DNA from: Candidatus Thermosaccharophagus tengchongensis
Lineage (GTDB): Bacteria > Armatimonadota > Fervidibacteria > Fervidibacterales > Thermosaccharophagaceae
Length of the DNA: 64,000 bases
Reading direction: 5' to 3' (one strand)
Assembly: GCA_032161105.1 (NCBI GenBank)
Contig: JAVHTD010000013.1
Shown one piece after another: positions 5,976-34,324 of this stretch (the first letter of the stretch is position 1; every line of letters starts with the position of its first letter). The notes beneath the pieces are model-generated. The model ran no database searches and had not been told where the DNA came from. It worked only from the letters and a program-made list of their open reading frames with translations. A program made the translations under genes and the position numbers.

Positions 5976-7424
5976 TCAAGCCTCAGCAGCACGGCGCTTT
6001 GTGCGCTCCTTACGCAGCTCCACCTTTCGCTTAAGCTCAATCGTTATCTCAACGGAGCGCTCCTTCAAAGGCATGGTCACTTCCCTGTGAGCGGGTTCGT
6101 ATCCGTCAGCAACGGCGTAGATATTCCATGTTGCCACTGAAACGCCCTCAAAAACAGCCCAACCGTCCTCATCGGTTTTGGCAAAGTATTGTCCACCCAG
6201 AGCGAGCGCCTTCTTCTGTGCTTGCTTGTTCATCCTCATGCGCAATTCAACGAGCCTCGGATCAACCTCCCTGAGGGAGATGAGCACACCCGCATCACCA
6301 ATGGGTAAGCCATCTTCAGCGCTGATGACGCGCACCTTCAGTGTTATTCCCTTTGTCACAATGACCTTACCGACATCCACCCTCACTTCATCGGCATCTC
6401 GCCTCAGGATTTGCTCAACCGCTTCATTTGGCAACCTCACAATTGTCGGCGCATAACCGTCAACCTCAAATGTGAGTGTGAATTCAACCTCGCCTCCAAC
6501 CGCAAACCTGATGTTCCCCTTCCACAGACCCACATCACCAACTGTCACATTAAACTTGCCCTCCCTATCCGTCTTGGAGGGCAGGTTGAAAGCTGCCATC
6601 ATGGCAAATTGGTTGCCACCTTTACCCCGCAGCCGAATTTGCGTCCCCGTCACCCTGAACGGTGTCTCAGCTAAGGGGTTGCCATCTTCATCCACAAGCA
6701 GCCCGCTAACTTGCAGGTTTAGTGCATTGCGCTTTAATCCCCCCACACCACCTAACGCCAACTGACCCATCTGCACCGCGATTAAGTCCAAACGCAATAT
6801 CGCTCCATCTTGCAATGTCACCGTCTGTGGCTTAAGCGATGTCGTAAGCAAACGCCTGAGTGGATCAGGGATGCGTGTTATCGCCCCAGCCAGAGCTGCG
6901 ACCTCGTATTCTCCGGGGCTCAACCCACGCACGAAATACATCCCAAACTCATCCACTTGTGTGCGCTCCCACTCCCTGTCACCAACCTTGCGATAAAAGA
7001 CTTGAGCGTCAATGACCACTTCACCCTTATCCGTCTTGACTACGCCCCAAATCATGGCGCCATCTTGCGAACGCATCTGACGGAGCGTCAACCAGACGCC
7101 AACACGGCTCTCATCGTTTGGCAGGCGAGTCTGCGATGTCGCCATAGTGCCATCAACTTCGTGGAGCGCACGCACAGTGTATGCTCCGGAGATAAGACCG
7201 CCAAATTTGAACCGTCCATTATCGTCCGCTGTCGTTGTGCGCGGAAGATTAAAGCGCACCCTCAACGGCTCGTCCGAGGAGGACAAAAGGACAGTGACAC
7301 CAGCCTTCGGAGTTTTTCCATCTGTGTCAAAGACCGTCCCAGCTATCTCACCAGCAATTGATGGAAGTTGAATGGCGCAGCAGGAGAGTATGACAACAAG
7401 CCATCCCACCAATCGCATCACCAT
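5976..7424 (-). CDS. Secreted carboxypeptidase-regulatory-like (CarboxypepD_reg/Cna-B) repeat protein
   Basis: Signal peptide; repeated G.V.D..G.P...A.V...TD..G.F...GL..G.Y.V patterns. Confidence 0.75.
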   Translation of the reverse strand: MVMRLVGWLVVILSCCAIQLPSIAGEIAGTVFDTDGKTPKAGVTVLLSSSDEPLRVRFNLPRTTTADDNGRFKFGGLISGAYTVRALHEVDGTMATSQTRLPNDESRVGVWLTLRQMRSQDGAMIWGVVKTDKGEVVIDAQVFYRKVGDREWERTQVDEFGMYFVRGLSPGEYEVAALAGAITRIPDPLRRLLTTSLKPQTVTLQDGAILRLDLIAVQMGQLALGGVGGLKRNALNLQVSGLLVDEDGNPLAETPFRVTGTQIRLRGKGGNQFAMMAAFNLPSKTDREGKFNVTVGDVGLWKGNIRFAVGGEVEFTLTFEVDGYAPTIVRLPNEAVEQILRRDADEVRVDVGKVIVTKGITLKVRVISAEDGLPIGDAGVLISLREVDPRLVELRMRMNKQAQKKALALGGQYFAKTDEDGWAVFEGVSVATWNIYAVADGYEPAHREVTMPLKERSVEITIELKRKVELRKERTKRRAAEA

Positions 7425-7658
7425 TTCACCTCATGTTGCGTTTAAGAATCGCCATCCCTCAGTCTATAAATTTTGACGCTGCTCGGCTGAGCGGATTTAC
7501 CGAATTAAAGCTTCGTCGCTAAAGTAATCCCCACCCTATAGTTTGGCAGCGATGGTGAGGTTGGTTGCTTCAAACTTGCCGCGCAGCAAACTTTTGAGTG
7601 AGCTGGCGCAGAGCAATTTGGTTTCACAGGGAAAGCACGGATGGGAAGGTGAAAGGTG

Positions 7659-9104
7659 ATGGGCATTGACACATTTGATGTTGTCGTGATCGGTGGCGGA
7701 CCGGGTGGATATGTTGCTGCGATAAGGGCTGCACAATCCGGCATGCGCACAGCCCTGATTGAGAAGTGGAAGCTCGGTGGCACATGCCTGAACAAGGGTT
7801 GCATACCGACAAAGGCAATGCTGCACGCAGCTTACATGCTCAGACGCGTGCGCACGCTTGATAAAATCGGCATAACCGCGAGCAATGTGGGGTTCAACTA
7901 CGACCGAATGGTCAGTTGGAGGGATGGCATAGTAAGCACTTTGAGGCGTGGCTTAGAGGGGTTGATGCGCTCAAACGGCGTTGAGCTCATCTTCGGCAAG
8001 GCGAGCTTTGTAAGCCCAAATGAGCTCAGCATCATCAGCAAGGGGAGCGAGTTCAAGATCGGGTTCAAGCACGCCATCATAGCGACTGGCTCAAAGCCAT
8101 CCAACTTGAGGTGCTTTAAGGGGTGCAAGAGTTGCCTTTTAAGCGAGGGCGCACTGTTCATGCAATCGCTGCCTCGCAAATTAGCCATCGTTGGCGGTGG
8201 CGCAATCGGTGTTGAATTGGCTTGGCTCTTCGGCTCACTCGGATGCAATGTAACTCTGATTGAACTCATGCCGAGGCTGCTCCCGACGATGGATTCCTCG
8301 CTATCGCGCGGCATTGAGATGCATTTCCGAAGGATGGGCATTAATGTGATGACCGCAACTTGCGTCACATCGGCTGAGGAGACACACGACGGGATAAGGC
8401 TTCAATGGGGGAGCCCGCCCGGCAAGGTGGTGGAGTCATCCGGGGATTGTTTTGAGGGTGTCATCGTCGCCGTGGGGAGAATTGCGGATACCGGTTCACT
8501 CAATGCGCATGCCGCGGATGTGCAACTCTGTGATGATGGCAGGGTGATGGTTGACTGCAGCCTTAAAACGAGCAATCCTCACATCTATGCCATCGGCGAT
8601 GTGATTAGAGCCGGCGGTTTTGCACATCAGGCGATGGCTGAGGGAGAGCTTGCGGTTGAGGCATTGCATGGCGTTCAAGTTGATATCAGCAAACTGCTGA
8701 TACCGCAGTGCATTTACACGCATCCCGAGATAGCCTCCGTTGGGTTGACAGAGGAGCAGATGCGCGAGCAAACCGATTCCGTGCTCGTCGGCGAATTCCC
8801 GATGAGGGCTAACGGGAGGGCGTTAACTTGCGATGAGCCGGAAGGCTTCGTCAAAATTGTCGGCGATAAGCGCACCGGTGTTGTGACTGGCGTGCACATA
8901 ATTTCGGCAGGGGCAAGTGAGCTTATAAGCGAGGGCACCCTTGCAATACAGCTCGGTATGAAGTTTGACGAATACATTAGGCTCATTCACCCTCATCCAA
9001 CGCTGTCGGAAGCCCTTGGGGAGGCTGCGATGGCTGCTATCGGAAAGCCATTGCACATCCCAAAACTCACGAGGAGGATTGGGAGAGTTAAAGGCAACGC
9101 ATGA
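7659..9104 (+). CDS. lpdA: Dihydrolipoyl dehydrogenase
   Basis: GGGPGGY, GGTCLNKGCIP redox disulfide, GGGAIG, HPHPTLSE. Confidence 0.95.
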   Translation: MGIDTFDVVVIGGGPGGYVAAIRAAQSGMRTALIEKWKLGGTCLNKGCIPTKAMLHAAYMLRRVRTLDKIGITASNVGFNYDRMVSWRDGIVSTLRRGLEGLMRSNGVELIFGKASFVSPNELSIISKGSEFKIGFKHAIIATGSKPSNLRCFKGCKSCLLSEGALFMQSLPRKLAIVGGGAIGVELAWLFGSLGCNVTLIELMPRLLPTMDSSLSRGIEMHFRRMGINVMTATCVTSAEETHDGIRLQWGSPPGKVVESSGDCFEGVIVAVGRIADTGSLNAHAADVQLCDDGRVMVDCSLKTSNPHIYAIGDVIRAGGFAHQAMAEGELAVEALHGVQVDISKLLIPQCIYTHPEIASVGLTEEQMREQTDSVLVGEFPMRANGRALTCDEPEGFVKIVGDKRTGVVTGVHIISAGASELISEGTLAIQLGMKFDEYIRLIHPHPTLSEALGEAAMAAIGKPLHIPKLTRRIGRVKGNA

Positions 9105-28774: not shown

Positions 28775-29018
28775 ACAAGCTGACACTTTTGTGACAGCTC
28801 TGCTTGGCTGAAGCAAGACGAGGGTAAGTCTGGAGTGTATAGCAACGGCATTGCTGAGTTGAAGGCTTTGTGTCCAGAAGACGCATTATCTGCGCTGGAG
28901 GTGAGTGGTGGCATTGTGATAGCTGTGCGGGCGTGCGGATGTGGTTGCCACCTCCAAGCAACTTTTGGGAAAATTGGATTTTTTGCCAATACTGCAGCTG
29001 TGAAGGGAGGTGGAGACC

Positions 29019-30287
29019 ATGGCTGTTGCGCCCAAGCAGTTTGTTTACAGCGAAGTAGCTCGCAAGTTAAGAACCGCCACTTACCGTGATGGTCTTACGA
29101 TTGCCTTCGTTAGCACATACCCACCACAGGAGTGCGGAATAGCCACATACACACAAGACCTCATCCATGCCCTTGAGATGCATGGCTGCATCAAAAGGGC
29201 AACAGTTGTCGCCGTCTCCGATGGTGCGCAAGCTTATGATCACCATGTCAACTTCGTCATCAGGAAGAATAGCCGCAAAGATTACGCATTGGCAGCCGAA
29301 TTTTTGAATGATAGCGATGTTGACATAGTCAACATACAGCACGAATTTGGCATATTCGGCGGTGAAGATGGTGAATTCGTCCTTGAACTTTACAAGGGGC
29401 TGAAAAAGCCGATAGTAACCACCTTGCACACAATCCTATACAATGTGGACAGCTCAAAGCGGCGAATAACGCAGCTCATGGCTCAGCACTCCAAAAAACT
29501 CATCGTGATGAACAGCATTGCCTTCTGGCTGCTCTCATGGCACTATGGCATTGATGCGGCAAATGTCGCGCTGATCTATCATGGCGCCCCAGACATACCA
29601 TTTGGGCTGAAGGAGGAGGCAAAGAGGGAGCTTAATCTTTCGGGAAAAATTGTGCTATCAACATTCGGGTTGATCAACAGGGGCAAGGGAATTGAGTATG
29701 CCATCCAAGCCATGAGCCAAATTGTGAAGCACTATCCGCAGGCAATTTATCTCATCATCGGAAGGACACACCCGAATGTAGTCCGCTACGAGGGAGAATC
29801 ATATCGCATGGAGCTTGAGGAGTTGGTCAGGAAGCTCGGCTTAAGCGAACATGTCAAGTTCGTGAACAAGTATCTGACGAAGGGCGAAATAATACGCTAC
29901 CTTTGCGCATCCGACATATACATTTGCCCATACACTTCGTTGAATCAAATCGTTAGTGGCACACTTGCCTACGCTGTTGCTGCTGGAAAAGCCATAATTT
30001 CAACGCCTTCTCTATATGCCCAAGAAGTGCTGGCTGAAGGCAGAGGATTATTGTGCGAGCCTTGTAATCCAGAGTCAATTAGCGAGAAGGTAATCTACCT
30101 TTTGAGCAACCCAAGGGAGCTTGAAGCGTTGGAGAGGAGAGCATACCGTTTTGGTCGCCAAATGACATGGCAAGCAGTTGCTTGGGATCACGAGAGGCTT
30201 TTCAGAGAGGTCGTCGCATATTCATACACTCATCAAGCTTATCCATCGCTGAGCGATTCGCTGCACATCAGGGCAGCAAAGTTATGA
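29019..30287 (+). CDS. Glycosyltransferase family 4
   Basis: STYPPQECGIATY, QHEFGIFGG, TFGLI..KGIE, SGTLAYA. Confidence 0.92.
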   Translation: MAVAPKQFVYSEVARKLRTATYRDGLTIAFVSTYPPQECGIATYTQDLIHALEMHGCIKRATVVAVSDGAQAYDHHVNFVIRKNSRKDYALAAEFLNDSDVDIVNIQHEFGIFGGEDGEFVLELYKGLKKPIVTTLHTILYNVDSSKRRITQLMAQHSKKLIVMNSIAFWLLSWHYGIDAANVALIYHGAPDIPFGLKEEAKRELNLSGKIVLSTFGLINRGKGIEYAIQAMSQIVKHYPQAIYLIIGRTHPNVVRYEGESYRMELEELVRKLGLSEHVKFVNKYLTKGEIIRYLCASDIYICPYTSLNQIVSGTLAYAVAAGKAIISTPSLYAQEVLAEGRGLLCEPCNPESISEKVIYLLSNPRELEALERRAYRFGRQMTWQAVAWDHERLFREVVAYSYTHQAYPSLSDSLHIRAAKL

Positions 30288-30401
30288 GGGCGCGCTTTCA
30301 CGCCACCCAACGCGCAGAAATTCGCAGCATAACGCCAACGCCCGTTAGCCTACCATCCTCACACCAACCTCGCGAGCCATTGCAAGGTGAGGTGTGAGAG
30401 G

Positions 30402-31502
30402 ATGAGTGAAATGGTCAAGCTAAGCAAAGTGATAAAGTGTCCACGAATTAACATCGCTCACTTGGCATCAATCACCGATGACACAGGTGTGCTTCAGCAC
30501 ACAAAATACGGCGTCCCAAATCCAAAGCACGGTTACACCACCGACGATAACGCAAGGGCATTGATCGTTGCGGTAAAGCATCACGAGCTAACGGGTGAGA
30601 GTGAATCACTGGAGTTAGCGCGCACATACTTGGCATTCCTTCAATGGATGCAGCGTGAGGATGGCTTATTCCACAACGAGGCAAGCTACGATAGACGCAT
30701 ACTTGATGATGTCGGTTCACTTGCATGTCAAGGGCGCGCAGTGTGGGCGCTCAGTTGGGTTGCCGTAAGCAAGCTCCCAATTGGGATGCGAATGACCGCC
30801 TTTGAAATGCTTCAACGAATGCCGCTCAGTTCCATCCCGCTTGATACATCAATCCATGTGCCATCGTTCATCATCTATGGTTTGACTGAGCTGAAGGAGA
30901 AGGCTGGTTCAAACAGCTTGGAAAAGATCGCAATGCAAAGCTCGCATGAGGTGGCGCTTGAAAATGCCATCACAGCGCTCCTTGACCTTTACAGACGAAA
31001 CTCATCCGATGATTGGAAGTGGTTCATTGACGAAATGACTTGGGGCATCGGAGCACCATGTGCTGCGCTATTTAGGGCATACAGGTTGCTTGGCGACGAG
31101 CAAATTTTGCGTGTGGCGATGAGCGCATACGAGTTCATGTGTGGCATTGTCTTTGAGGACGACATCTTTCAGCCCATCGGGTGCAAAGGGTGGTTCAAGA
31201 GGGGTGGCGAGCGAGCTTACTTTGACCAGCAACCAATAGATGCGATGTGGATGTTCCTTTCGGCATACGAGGCATACAGGTGTTTAGAACGCAGGATTGA
31301 CTTTCACAGGGCTTCGCTTGCGCTCGGCTGGTTCATTGGATACAATGTTCATGGCATTGAGCTTTACGATGAGCTAACTGGCGCATGCTATGATGGCTTG
31401 CACGAATTTGGCGTCAACATGAATCAAGGCGCTGAGGCGACCATCGCTGCCTTGCTCACATTCATCACTTTCTCCCAGCTCAACATGCGTCAAAATAAAT
31501 GA
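30402..31502 (+). CDS. Six-hairpin glycosidase-like domain protein (domain often fused C-terminally to this GT4 subfamily)
   Basis: HL..ITDDTGVLQH...VP...HGYTTDDNARAL, FDQQP, WF.G.N, CYDGL...VNMNQGAE. Confidence 0.75.
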   Translation: MSEMVKLSKVIKCPRINIAHLASITDDTGVLQHTKYGVPNPKHGYTTDDNARALIVAVKHHELTGESESLELARTYLAFLQWMQREDGLFHNEASYDRRILDDVGSLACQGRAVWALSWVAVSKLPIGMRMTAFEMLQRMPLSSIPLDTSIHVPSFIIYGLTELKEKAGSNSLEKIAMQSSHEVALENAITALLDLYRRNSSDDWKWFIDEMTWGIGAPCAALFRAYRLLGDEQILRVAMSAYEFMCGIVFEDDIFQPIGCKGWFKRGGERAYFDQQPIDAMWMFLSAYEAYRCLERRIDFHRASLALGWFIGYNVHGIELYDELTGACYDGLHEFGVNMNQGAEATIAALLTFITFSQLNMRQNK

Positions 31503-31521
31503 CGGGGCGTTACAAGGGGCA

Positions 31522-31917
31522 ATGCAGTGGGCAGGGTGGTCGCTGGTGAGCATGCACATCGCATGCTCATCAGAGGAAAGTCCGGACTCCATAGGGCAGC
31601 GCGCTGGGTAACTCCCAGTCCCCGTGAGGGGAGGAAAGTGCCACAGAAAACATACCGCCATGTGGTTAAGCGGCAGCTGCTAAAACTGTAACGCCCTCAG
31701 CTGCTGGCGTTGCCACATGGTAAGGGTGAAAAGGTGGGGTAAGAGCCCACCAGCAACGCCGTGAGGCGTTGGCTTGGCAAACCCCGCGCGGAGCAAGACC
31801 AAACAGGGGACGCTATCAGGTTGCCCGCCGATGTCCCCGGGTGGGTCGCTTAGAAAAATGACCACCACCGCCACCATGCTGTGGCGGGACAGAATCCGGC
31901 TTACATGCCCACTGCAT
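31522..31917 (+). ncRNA. rnpB: RNase P RNA, bacterial type A, lacking P18
   Basis: GAGGAAAGTCCGG, AGTGCCACAGAAA, GGGTGAAA, GGCAAACCC, GAGCAAG, ACAGAATCCGGCTTA; P1 ATGCAGTGGGCA pairs with TGCCCACTGCAT. Confidence 0.98.
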
Positions 31918-31966
31918 GCCCCATTTTACCCTCGCACTACACTATGCCAGTGTGAGCCCATCAGCG

Positions 31967-32385
31967 CTACCTCAATTTCACCCGCCACACTTTCGTTGTC
32001 TCATCCTTGCTTGCTGATGCCAGAAACTCACCAGACGGAGCAAAAGCCAACGCAAGCGACCAATTGCGCCCGCCCTCCTTCGTCAAAACCAGCTGCCAAT
32101 CATTAACCCGCCAAACCCTCAACCTATCATCCATGCTGCATGAGACGGCAAATTTGCCATCTGGACTAAACCCGACGGCACGAATTTCCCTTTGATGCCA
32201 TCCCTCTAAGCGCTTGACCAAACTTCGGCTAACAACATCCCAAACCGCCAAAGTCGCATCTTCGCTTCCAGAGAACAAAATCGCACCATTGGGATGAAAT
32301 GCCATCGCCGTAATTGCACCTTGATGGGCTTGCCATTTTACTATCGGCTCCGATTGAGCAACATTCAAAAGCCAGATTTGCCAAT
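31967..32385 (-). pseudogene. C-terminal remnant of a WD40-repeat protein (about 3 blades, 5' end truncated)
   Basis: AH..AITAMAFHPNG..LFSGSEDATLAVWD, GFSPDG..SCSMDD.LRVWR, AFAPSG..LASASKD.T.KVWR; no SD or start context, and the frame stops at the low-GC junction. Confidence 0.75.
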
Positions 32386-33058: not shown

Positions 33059-34324
33059 CTATAAGGGATCTCCAGGTTGATGCGCATATAAGAGATGAAT
33101 AGCTTTCTGCATGAATGGGTGAATGTATGGTCTAGGAGAGGCATCGAGGAAACTACCATTTTTGGTATGATACGCGTTATTGGCTGGTATTAGCAACACA
33201 TGTCCAAGCTCATGGGCAACTATTAGAGCTTTGAGTTCGTTAGCCGACGTTAACCAGCCGCGATAGAGAGCTACAAGGCCAATTCCTACTTTGTAGTTAG
33301 GATCTTCGTACACGTAAAACTTCCATGCCTTAGCATAACTAGTGGTATCTACGGTCTCCAGCCGGAGCAGGATAGAACCATAGTCTTCAGGGGCCCTTAG
33401 GTCATCCTTTTGCGTTATTTCAACTACAAAGCTTAATCCTGTATATCTAGTCCAGAAGTCAACTCCCTGTCGGATAGTTTCTAAATACGGCTCTAGCGCT
33501 CTATTGACCAAGACTTTGATTGGCTTACTAGGCGGTCCGTCACTTAAAGACATAAATCTGACTACTCTCCCGTTTACAGTTGCATACTTAAGCAGAAAAT
33601 CTCGAGCCAACCTTTCGAGCTCTGCAGGATCATGAATTAACTCCAGCTCGCTGCTGCCTACATTTCCTTGTGAATCCACTGCCTCCACTCTCACCCATTT
33701 TCTGCCTGGACTTCCGAACTTCTCTAAGTCAACCTCAAACTGCCCACCATTAAATGGCCACTCCTGCAATATTGTTCCTTGGTCAGTTACACGAAGCTTT
33801 GCAATCGGATAACTACCAGGATATGCTTCTCCCACAATTTTTAGCTTTGTGCCATTTCCTACAGTTCGGACATCTTCTGGCCAATCAGCAGGATACCTTA
33901 GATAGACCTTTGGAGGTTCAACAGAAGGAGAAGGGATTACACGAATTTGTGTCTGACCACTAAACCTGATGTTGTTTCTCACTGCTACAAAGCTAATGGT
34001 GTATACAACCTCGTTACTGACTTGGAAGCTTACTTGCCAGTGCCTGGAATCATTCAGTTTCTTGAAGGTGATGGATGGCTCTGTTGGCTGGTAGCTCCAG
34101 CTTACATCTGCTTCAGCTAAAATTTGATCCTTCACAGAATCACCGGTTGTAAGCTCAAGGTTAGCTACATCTCCACTTTTGGCTTCGCTTGGTCCGATGA
34201 TGGACGTAATTACATCAGAAGGCTGGCTCGGTGGATTGCTTGGAGGTAGTAGAGGTCCTTTTCCTCCACCTCCGCACCCTCCTATTGTTAGAATCACAGC
34301 AAGTAGCAACAGATGCCTTTTCAC
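33059..34324 (-). CDS. Lipoprotein with Ig-like domains and a C-terminal zincin (HExxH) metalloprotease domain
   Basis: MKRHLLLLAVILTIGG-C lipobox, Pro-rich linker, VRVEAVDSQGN Ig motif, VAHELGHVL...H; SD GGAGGTG. Confidence 0.75.
   Translation of the reverse strand: MKRHLLLLAVILTIGGCGGGGKGPLLPPSNPPSQPSDVITSIIGPSEAKSGDVANLELTTGDSVKDQILAEADVSWSYQPTEPSITFKKLNDSRHWQVSFQVSNEVVYTISFVAVRNNIRFSGQTQIRVIPSPSVEPPKVYLRYPADWPEDVRTVGNGTKLKIVGEAYPGSYPIAKLRVTDQGTILQEWPFNGGQFEVDLEKFGSPGRKWVRVEAVDSQGNVGSSELELIHDPAELERLARDFLLKYATVNGRVVRFMSLSDGPPSKPIKVLVNRALEPYLETIRQGVDFWTRYTGLSFVVEITQKDDLRAPEDYGSILLRLETVDTTSYAKAWKFYVYEDPNYKVGIGLVALYRGWLTSANELKALIVAHELGHVLLIPANNAYHTKNGSFLDASPRPYIHPFMQKAIHLLYAHQPGDPL

Follow-up and report, generated by a model that had tools for sequence, protein, structure and literature searches.

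The locus at 31524-31919 of the window, which is the whole stretch of 64,000 nucleotides analysed here, is a bacterial type A RNase P RNA without helix P18. RNase P trims the 5' leaders off tRNA precursors, and its RNA subunit is catalytic. Judged from sequence comparison, the locus is very probably the only rnpB gene of its genome, functional, and carried by a hot-spring bacterium that belongs to the Fervidibacter class. The same holds for a clean deletion of P18 in an ancestor that the class shares with its sister family f17, which makes the RNA one of many independent cases of a known variant of the type A architecture. The window RNA is a further lineage of the already known type A RNase P RNAs that lack this helix.

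A full-length type A RNA with an empty P18 site

Using cmscan, we obtained a match to the Rfam model RF00010 at 31524-31919 (+) with 291.8 bits (gathering score 100, E 2e-94), which covers all model positions from 1 to 367 and is the only Rfam match within the 64-kb window. The conserved strands of J3/4 and P4 (AGGAAAGUCCGG ... ACAGAAnCCGGCUUA) equal the consensus at 31574-31586 and 31889-31903 in this alignment, and the further type A traits, namely the specificity domain with P13 and P14 and the P15-P17 arm, are aligned to RF00010 as well. Type B RNase P RNA instead carries P5.1, P10.1 and P15.1. The GGU motif of L15, which according to a published passage pairs with the 3'-CCA end of the tRNA, is present at 31819-31821 in the P15/P16 internal loop. 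For P6, the evidence is the complementarity of GGGCA (31594-31598) and UGCCC (31822-31826).

The P18 block counts 24 positions in the model but none in the window RNA, meaning that 24 consensus columns stay empty. The first-pass annotation had proposed a type A RNA without P18 and an inspection of the P18 columns in a covariance alignment to RF00010, and the full-length match, in which no P18 stem was placed, bears out this proposal. Its further claim that the sequence runs from the 3' strand of P15 to P2 without room for P18 agrees with our reading, as GC and UUAGAAAAAU alone stand between them. The P18 helix with a GNRA loop docking on P8 is consequently missing from the window RNA; this helix is a usual but not a defining trait of class A RNase P RNA, since some accepted members do without it. 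All helices listed in the annotation were either aligned or readable from the sequence, apart from a sixth pair of P6: the model pairs G31599 in P7, and P6 therefore comprises 5 bp (31594-98 / 31822-26). Its coordinates (31522-31917) point to the right locus; they deviate by 2 nt from the ends of the model and fall short of the RNA with its extended P1 (31516-31922). The parts of the RNA along the window are as follows:

31516..31520 (+): P1 extension, 5' strand GGGGC; not covered by the Rfam model, pairs with 31918-31922
31521-31523 (+): AAU internal loop of the extended P1
31524..31534 (+): 5' strand of P1 (cmscan); pairs with 31904 and 31906-31915
31535..31541 (+): 5' strand of P2, GGUGGUC (cmscan); pairs with 31860-31866
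31543..31573 (+): P3 hairpin of 13 bp with loop 31556-31560 (cmscan and hand reading of the sequence)
31574..31586 (+): J3/4 and 5' strand of P4, AGGAAAGUCCGGA; conserved core, equals the consensus
31594..31598 (+): 5' strand of the P6 pseudoknot, GGGCA; complementary to UGCCC at 31822-31826
31604..31618 (+): P8 with L8 (UAACU) (cmscan); docking site of L18 in P18-bearing RNAs
31619..31632 (+): P9 with GUGA tetraloop (L9) (cmscan)
31655..31725 (+): long P12 (10-bp base, 8-bp distal stem, 18-nt loop); exceeds the model by an insert of 43 nt
31733..31751 (+): P13 (cmscan)
31753..31773 (+): P14 with GUGA loop (cmscan)
31797..31847 (+): P15-P16-P17 arm; P15 is GACC 31797-31800 / GGUC 31844-31847, GGU at 31819-31821
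31848..31859 (+): junction without P18; GC at 31848-31849, then the J18/2 sequence UUAGAAAAAU at 31850-31859
31860..31866 (+): 3' strand of P2, GACCACC (cmscan)
31868..31887 (+): P19 hairpin of 7 bp with loop CAUGCU
31889..31903 (+): region of the P4 3' strand, ACAGAAUCCGGCUUA; conserved core (cmscan)
31904..31915 (+): 3' strand of P1, A31905 bulged (cmscan)
31918..31922 (+): P1 extension, 3' strand GCCCC; pairs with 31516-31520, AUUUU comes next

The long P12 has a fold energy of -32.1 kcal/mol with a z-score of -3.55.

Extended P1 helix and flanks of the gene

An extension of P1 by GGGGC/GCCCC had also been suggested from the sequence. It is present at 31516-31520 / 31918-31922 and is kept throughout the genus: the flanks of P1 pair in all four same-genus genomes, with a different sequence in each, the other three species having GGGGACA/UGUCCCC, CCCGGCGA/UCGCCGGG and ACUGGCGA/UCGCCAGU. 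The duplex energies of these flanks range from -13 to -23 kcal/mol within the genus, and at most 1 of 200 shuffles was as good. In family f2, the P1 extension comprises 4-7 bp and is statistically weaker. For annotators, this serves as a warning that the Rfam model stops within the extended P1. Besides, in most class members the P1 extension leads on its 3' side into a run of U. A conserved A/T-rich stretch, AAAAUAAAUGAyGGGGCG, is located about 20-35 nt 5' of the extended P1 (window 31475-31515) and is common to the window's genome and one further genome (G003, locus L003); it may represent the -10 region of the rnpB promoter.

The neighbourhood of rnpB consists upstream of a family 1 glycosyltransferase ORF (29010-30287, +) and a 371-aa ORF (30387-31502, +), which gave no Pfam hit up to an E-value of 0.001 and ends 22 nt before the RNA and 14 nt before the extended P1. 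Downstream, we found a WD40-repeat ORF (31967-32368, -) and, at 33059-34324 (-), a 421-aa ORF, again with no Pfam hit at this threshold. Two ORFs overlap rnpB itself (31374-31661, -, and 31774-32106, +); neither matches a Pfam family, and both are most likely spurious. We considered and rejected a functional link of rnpB to its neighbours, as nothing ties the glycosyltransferase, the ORFs lacking Pfam matches or the WD40 ORF to the RNA.

P18 was lost at least twice within Armatimonadota

The rnpB gene of one genome of family f2 and genus g2 (G005) shows 100% identity across 453 nt with that of Candidatus Fervidibacter canadensis, and the window therefore represents a sister family of Fervidibacter within the same order and class. 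GTDB assigns the group to Armatimonadota, and the NCBI taxonomy puts Ca. Fervidibacter canadensis under Candidatus Fervidibacterota. Our sample of the class comprises 24 species genomes from one order, two families (f1 and f2) and three genera.

For the phylum as a whole, we read 147 rnpB genes, made up of 138 of the 139 above-cut-off matches from a sample of 151 genomes and nine further class members; the gene of G065 was left out because its match ends at model position 222. The P18 status of each gene was read from the 105 nt that precede the P4 3' strand. In total, 41 genes lack P18, 105 carry a hairpin at the site and one (G126) is cut off there. P18 is absent from every gene read in f1 (4), f2 (19), f17 (5, with RNAs of about 336 nt), f10 (12, with RNAs of about 320 nt that also lack P19) and f34 (1). 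All other families read, with together 105 genes, have a hairpin of 20-60 nt at the P18 site, mostly with a GNRA loop; these 105 calls were made by eye from the printed segment and not by model alignment. Rfam alignments confirmed the absence of P18 in f10, f34 and f17 (G031, G095, G088, G038). As a separate observation, the f5 genes (for example G026, G054 and G111; loci L030, L145 and L116) have two consecutive hairpins with GNRA-type loops between P15 and J18/2 instead of the usual single P18, which may be P18 plus a P18.1-like expansion.

To place these genes on a species tree, we used 80 of the 151 genomes, 21 without P18 and 59 with P18 from 30 families, leaving out 71. The data consisted of 17 ribosomal proteins from the S10-spc regions, collected by blastp against the ORFs of the window's genome (2355 trimmed columns), and trees were calculated with FastTree and IQ-TREE (LG+G4, quick search). 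In both, the P18-less genomes fall into two clades with a support of 100 each (starred branches): f17+(f1+f2) with 12 rows, including the window's genome (clade A), and f34+f10 with 9 rows (clade B). The starred branches separate both clades and force two changes, which is also the fewest changes possible; shuffled labels needed 18.7 changes on average, and none of 500 shuffles was as low. Forcing a single P18-less clade of 21 rows costs 86.97 log-likelihood units with a p-AU of 0.0214, a modest p-value that comes from an unrooted tree, a simple LG+G4 model and 11 rows with an atypical amino-acid make-up.

Since f17 groups with f1+f2 in the tree, the loss in the window lineage predates the class and is common to f17. 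The deletion is thus probably ancient and would date back to the ancestor of the Fervidibacter class and its sister family f17. Armatimonadota appear to have lost P18 at least twice, with the loss in f34+f10 being a separate one, as the AU test rejects a single clade. The first-pass annotation had considered a possibly independent loss in this lineage. The organism lies outside Chlorobi and Aquificales, and its loss is therefore separate from those two. The loss is lineage-wide, and its extent is wider than had been suggested, as it includes the class plus f17, with a second clade in the phylum in addition.

While assembling the ribosomal protein regions, we also noted a 713-aa ORF between the S17 and L14 genes of the S10-spc operon in the window's genome (contig C2, locus L268, about 6103-8240). 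With its GTPase-like N-terminus (…GQGGSG…), it resembles a paralog of the EF-G type, and its position there is unusual.

Direct junctions are widespread in bacteria

Loss of P18 has been described for Chlorobium (Haas et al., 1994, as given in a citing paper), and all identified RNase P RNAs of Hydrogenothermaceae and Desulfurobacteriaceae lack the helix according to the relevant passage of PMC4227106. A further published passage states that a missing P18 is not unusual. The statement that P18 is lost in Chlorobi and some Aquificales is in accordance with these passages of citing papers and with our alignment of the Chlorobium RNA, which is empty at P18. Our literature search yielded no study of this RNA in Armatimonadetes, Armatimonadota or Fervidibacter. 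In the portions of the literature consulted, P18 loss in Bacteroidota was not found listed; a wider distribution of the loss could already be on record in the primary papers or in the RNase P database.

To map the direct junction, a collection of genomes from 185,579 species was scanned with a pattern made of the P15 3' strand, 0-4 nt, the J18/2 sequence and the P4 3' strand. True and false junctions were split by a script rule (a second AGAnnRAU inside the match) together with reading of the rows. Among the matches listed, 112 of 120 have a direct P15-to-J18/2 junction, which gives at least 112 records under at least 20 NCBI phylum labels. The remaining eight are P18-bearing RNAs, in which the degenerate pattern read into the helix, and were discarded. 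Again among the matches listed, the direct junctions include at least 30 from Bacteroidia, at least 8 each from Kiritimatiellia and Verrucomicrobiota, at least 7 from Actinomycetota, at least 5 from Armatimonadota plus one from Fervidibacter, which has a phylum label to itself, at least 3 each from Lentisphaeria, Clostridia and Chloroflexota and at least 2 from Bipolaricaulota. Thermoleophilia and Limnocylindria are represented among them as well. At least 5 matches listed belong to Chlorobiaceae (Chlorobium, Pelodictyon and Chlorobaculum), the published case, which served as a positive control. Neither Bacteroides itself nor Aquificales occur among the matches listed, which says nothing about either group. 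The P18 columns were empty in the Rfam alignments of all ten representatives, including Chlorobium, a Bacteroidales MAG and an Actinomycetes MAG.

These at least 112 records under at least 20 phylum labels are at odds with the earlier assumption that P18 is near-universal in bacteria, and they undercut the premise on which the novelty of the window RNA had been based. In taxonomic terms, the direct junction is common in Bacteroidia MAGs (at least 30 of the 112) and in Kiritimatiellia (at least 8), far beyond the clades named in the cited sections of the papers.

A more far-reaching reading would be that P18 loss is frequent and recurrent in bacteria, with Fervidibacter, its sister family and f17 as an old, purely thermophilic case in which the extended P1, P19 and the long P12 compensate. 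We consider this reading possible, with its chances somewhat below even. If the recurrent-loss part is true, a map of losses against co-varying elements and growth temperature could reveal what replaces the L18-P8 contact. Independent of this, P18 provides one of the chief contacts between the two halves of the ribozyme, and the natural P18-less RNAs show how much of this scaffold is dispensable, and those of the Fervidibacter class provide thermophilic P18-less material for folding studies. The finding also corrects the idea that P18 is near-universal; its practical value is modest, and it opens no new question.

What might replace the P18 brace

P18 acts as an interdomain stabiliser through an A-minor contact with P8, as described in a passage of PMC12974513. 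An excerpt of PMC5839562 reports for the full-size E. coli RNA that removal of P18 lowers the rate almost 700-fold without protein. In addition, the cited part of PMC4227106 regards it as a hallmark of thermophile RNAs that L9 is a GYAA loop, docked on a tandem of G-C/G-C within P1. In the window RNA, L9 is GUGA, which equals the Rfam consensus loop and differs from the thermophile hallmark GYAA. The idea that a long P1-L9 contact compensates for the loss of P18, put forward together with the extended P1, is not supported by this loop. Moreover, we found nothing in the window RNA that is unique to P18-less RNAs.

Another element, be it P19, the enlarged P12 or the extended P1, could have taken over the job of L18, in which case the brace would have been replaced and not simply lost. 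All three occur in the window RNA, the P19 hairpin is found in members of clade A including f17, and P8 and P9 are much enlarged in the P18-less RNAs of Fervidibacter and Chlorobium. However, neither the P19 loop CAUGCU nor the 18-nt loop of P12 is a GNRA loop, and P8 and P9 of the window RNA are of ordinary size. Clade B (f10 and f34) dispenses with P18 even though P19 is absent there, P12 is short and the RNAs measure about 320 nt, and therefore no single substitute tracks the loss of P18. Taken together, we regard such a takeover as unlikely.

We favour a clean deletion of P18, which probably took place in the ancestor of the Fervidibacter class and its sister family f17, from an RNA that would continue, with the small RnpA protein as its partner, to cut the 5' leader off tRNA precursors. 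With the L18-P8 brace gone, RnpA and the contacts L8-P4 and L9-P1 could keep the two domains in register. The specificity domain may additionally be stabilised by the L14-P8 contact, and helices rich in G+C, among them P1 with its 5-8 additional bp, may help to maintain the domain register.

Protein partner and integrity of the locus

The window's genome (2.74 Mb, 44 contigs, 97% complete) contains exactly one match to RF00010. Elsewhere in this genome, the protein subunit is encoded by an rnpA gene, a 142-aa ORF that matches PF00825 (Ribonuclease_P) with 83.7 bits at a cut-off of 22.3. It is located between rpmH and a yidD-like ORF, which is the canonical rpmH-rnpA-yidD order. A protein-only RNase P, HARP, was not found: HARPs are presumably members of Pfam PIN_5, and the best PIN_5 match in the genome is partial, lies in a frame of 409 aa and scores 21.9 bits, which is less than the cut-off of 27. 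The search for rnpA and HARP that the first-pass annotation had proposed hence revealed an intact rnpA and a PIN_5 match below threshold. This bears on a scenario in which the organism relies on HARP, and a relaxed or redundant RNA enzyme permitted the loss of P18. A few bacteria do possess HARP alongside an RNA-based RNase P, as stated in an excerpt of PMC9945441, but with the sub-threshold, partial PIN_5 match and the intact rnpA in its usual operon, we consider this scenario highly improbable.

A comparison of related rnpB genes had been proposed as well, and it showed the same P18-less junction throughout the class. We found rnpB in 23 of the 24 class genomes, the exception (G022) being only 61% complete, and the direct junction GGGUnGGUCGCnnAGAnAAAUG is identical in all 23 genes. 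Furthermore, contigs of four out of four independent runs, which stem from four studies of hot-springs metagenomes, bridge the junction with 0 gaps and no indels listed. They cover 31726-32050 (one of them to 32035) with 1-3 base differences and contradict an assembly deletion, which had been named as an alternative cause. None of the 24 sequencing runs listed for this DNA is recorded as RNA. Joints in the P12/P13 region of metagenome contigs were disregarded, as they trace back to the rnpB of other organisms, whose P13 has the same conserved sequence. Although the genome assembly is in 44 contigs, an assembly or binning artefact or a decaying pseudogene has next to no probability in view of the same junction in 23 of 23 class genes from separate species genomes, the gap-free bridging in four independent runs, the full-length model match with its conserved core and the sole RF00010 match in the genome. 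With its conserved core, GGU motif, rnpA operon and status as the sole rnpB match, the gene looks functional as far as sequence can tell.

Comparison with known RNase P RNAs

In its overall architecture, the window RNA resembles standard type A RNA (RF00010), such as E. coli M1 RNA and the P RNA of Thermotoga maritima, in the P4 core, the P6 complementarity and the GGU motif. The specificity domain P7-P14 and an rnpA partner gene are likewise common to both systems. In contrast to standard type A RNA, the window RNA lacks P18, has a P1 longer by 5 bp with an internal loop and a long P12, and P19 is present.

The P18-less RNA of Chlorobium and other Chlorobiaceae has the same direct P15-to-J18/2 junction, and in Chlorobium phaeovibrioides (L196), which belongs to a different phylum, gaps extend across all P18 columns. 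In this RNA, however, P8 has 26 nt versus 7 in the model and P9 is enlarged, whereas P8 and P9 of the window RNA are standard. The same difference holds for the closer relative Ca. Fervidibacter canadensis (L181), with 31 and 23 nt in P8 and P9 compared to 5 and 4 in the model.

The P18-less RNAs of Aquificales (Hydrogenothermaceae and Desulfurobacteriaceae), as far as described in the cited passages on Marszalkowski et al. (2006), are of type A and come from thermal habitats like the window RNA. In both cases, the gene for the protein subunit is located behind rpmH. The Aquificales-type L9 is GYAA, whereas the window L9 is GUGA, a comparison that relies on an excerpt of the published description (PMC4227106) and not on an alignment.

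The closest parallel within the same phylum is found in the Armatimonadota families f10 and f34 (Chthonomonas sp., Fimbriimonadaceae), which show the same kind of clean deletion. Nevertheless, they form a separate clade, and their RNAs differ from the window RNA in their length of about 320 nt, in the lack of P19 and in a junction that ends with AAAUCG instead of AAAUG.
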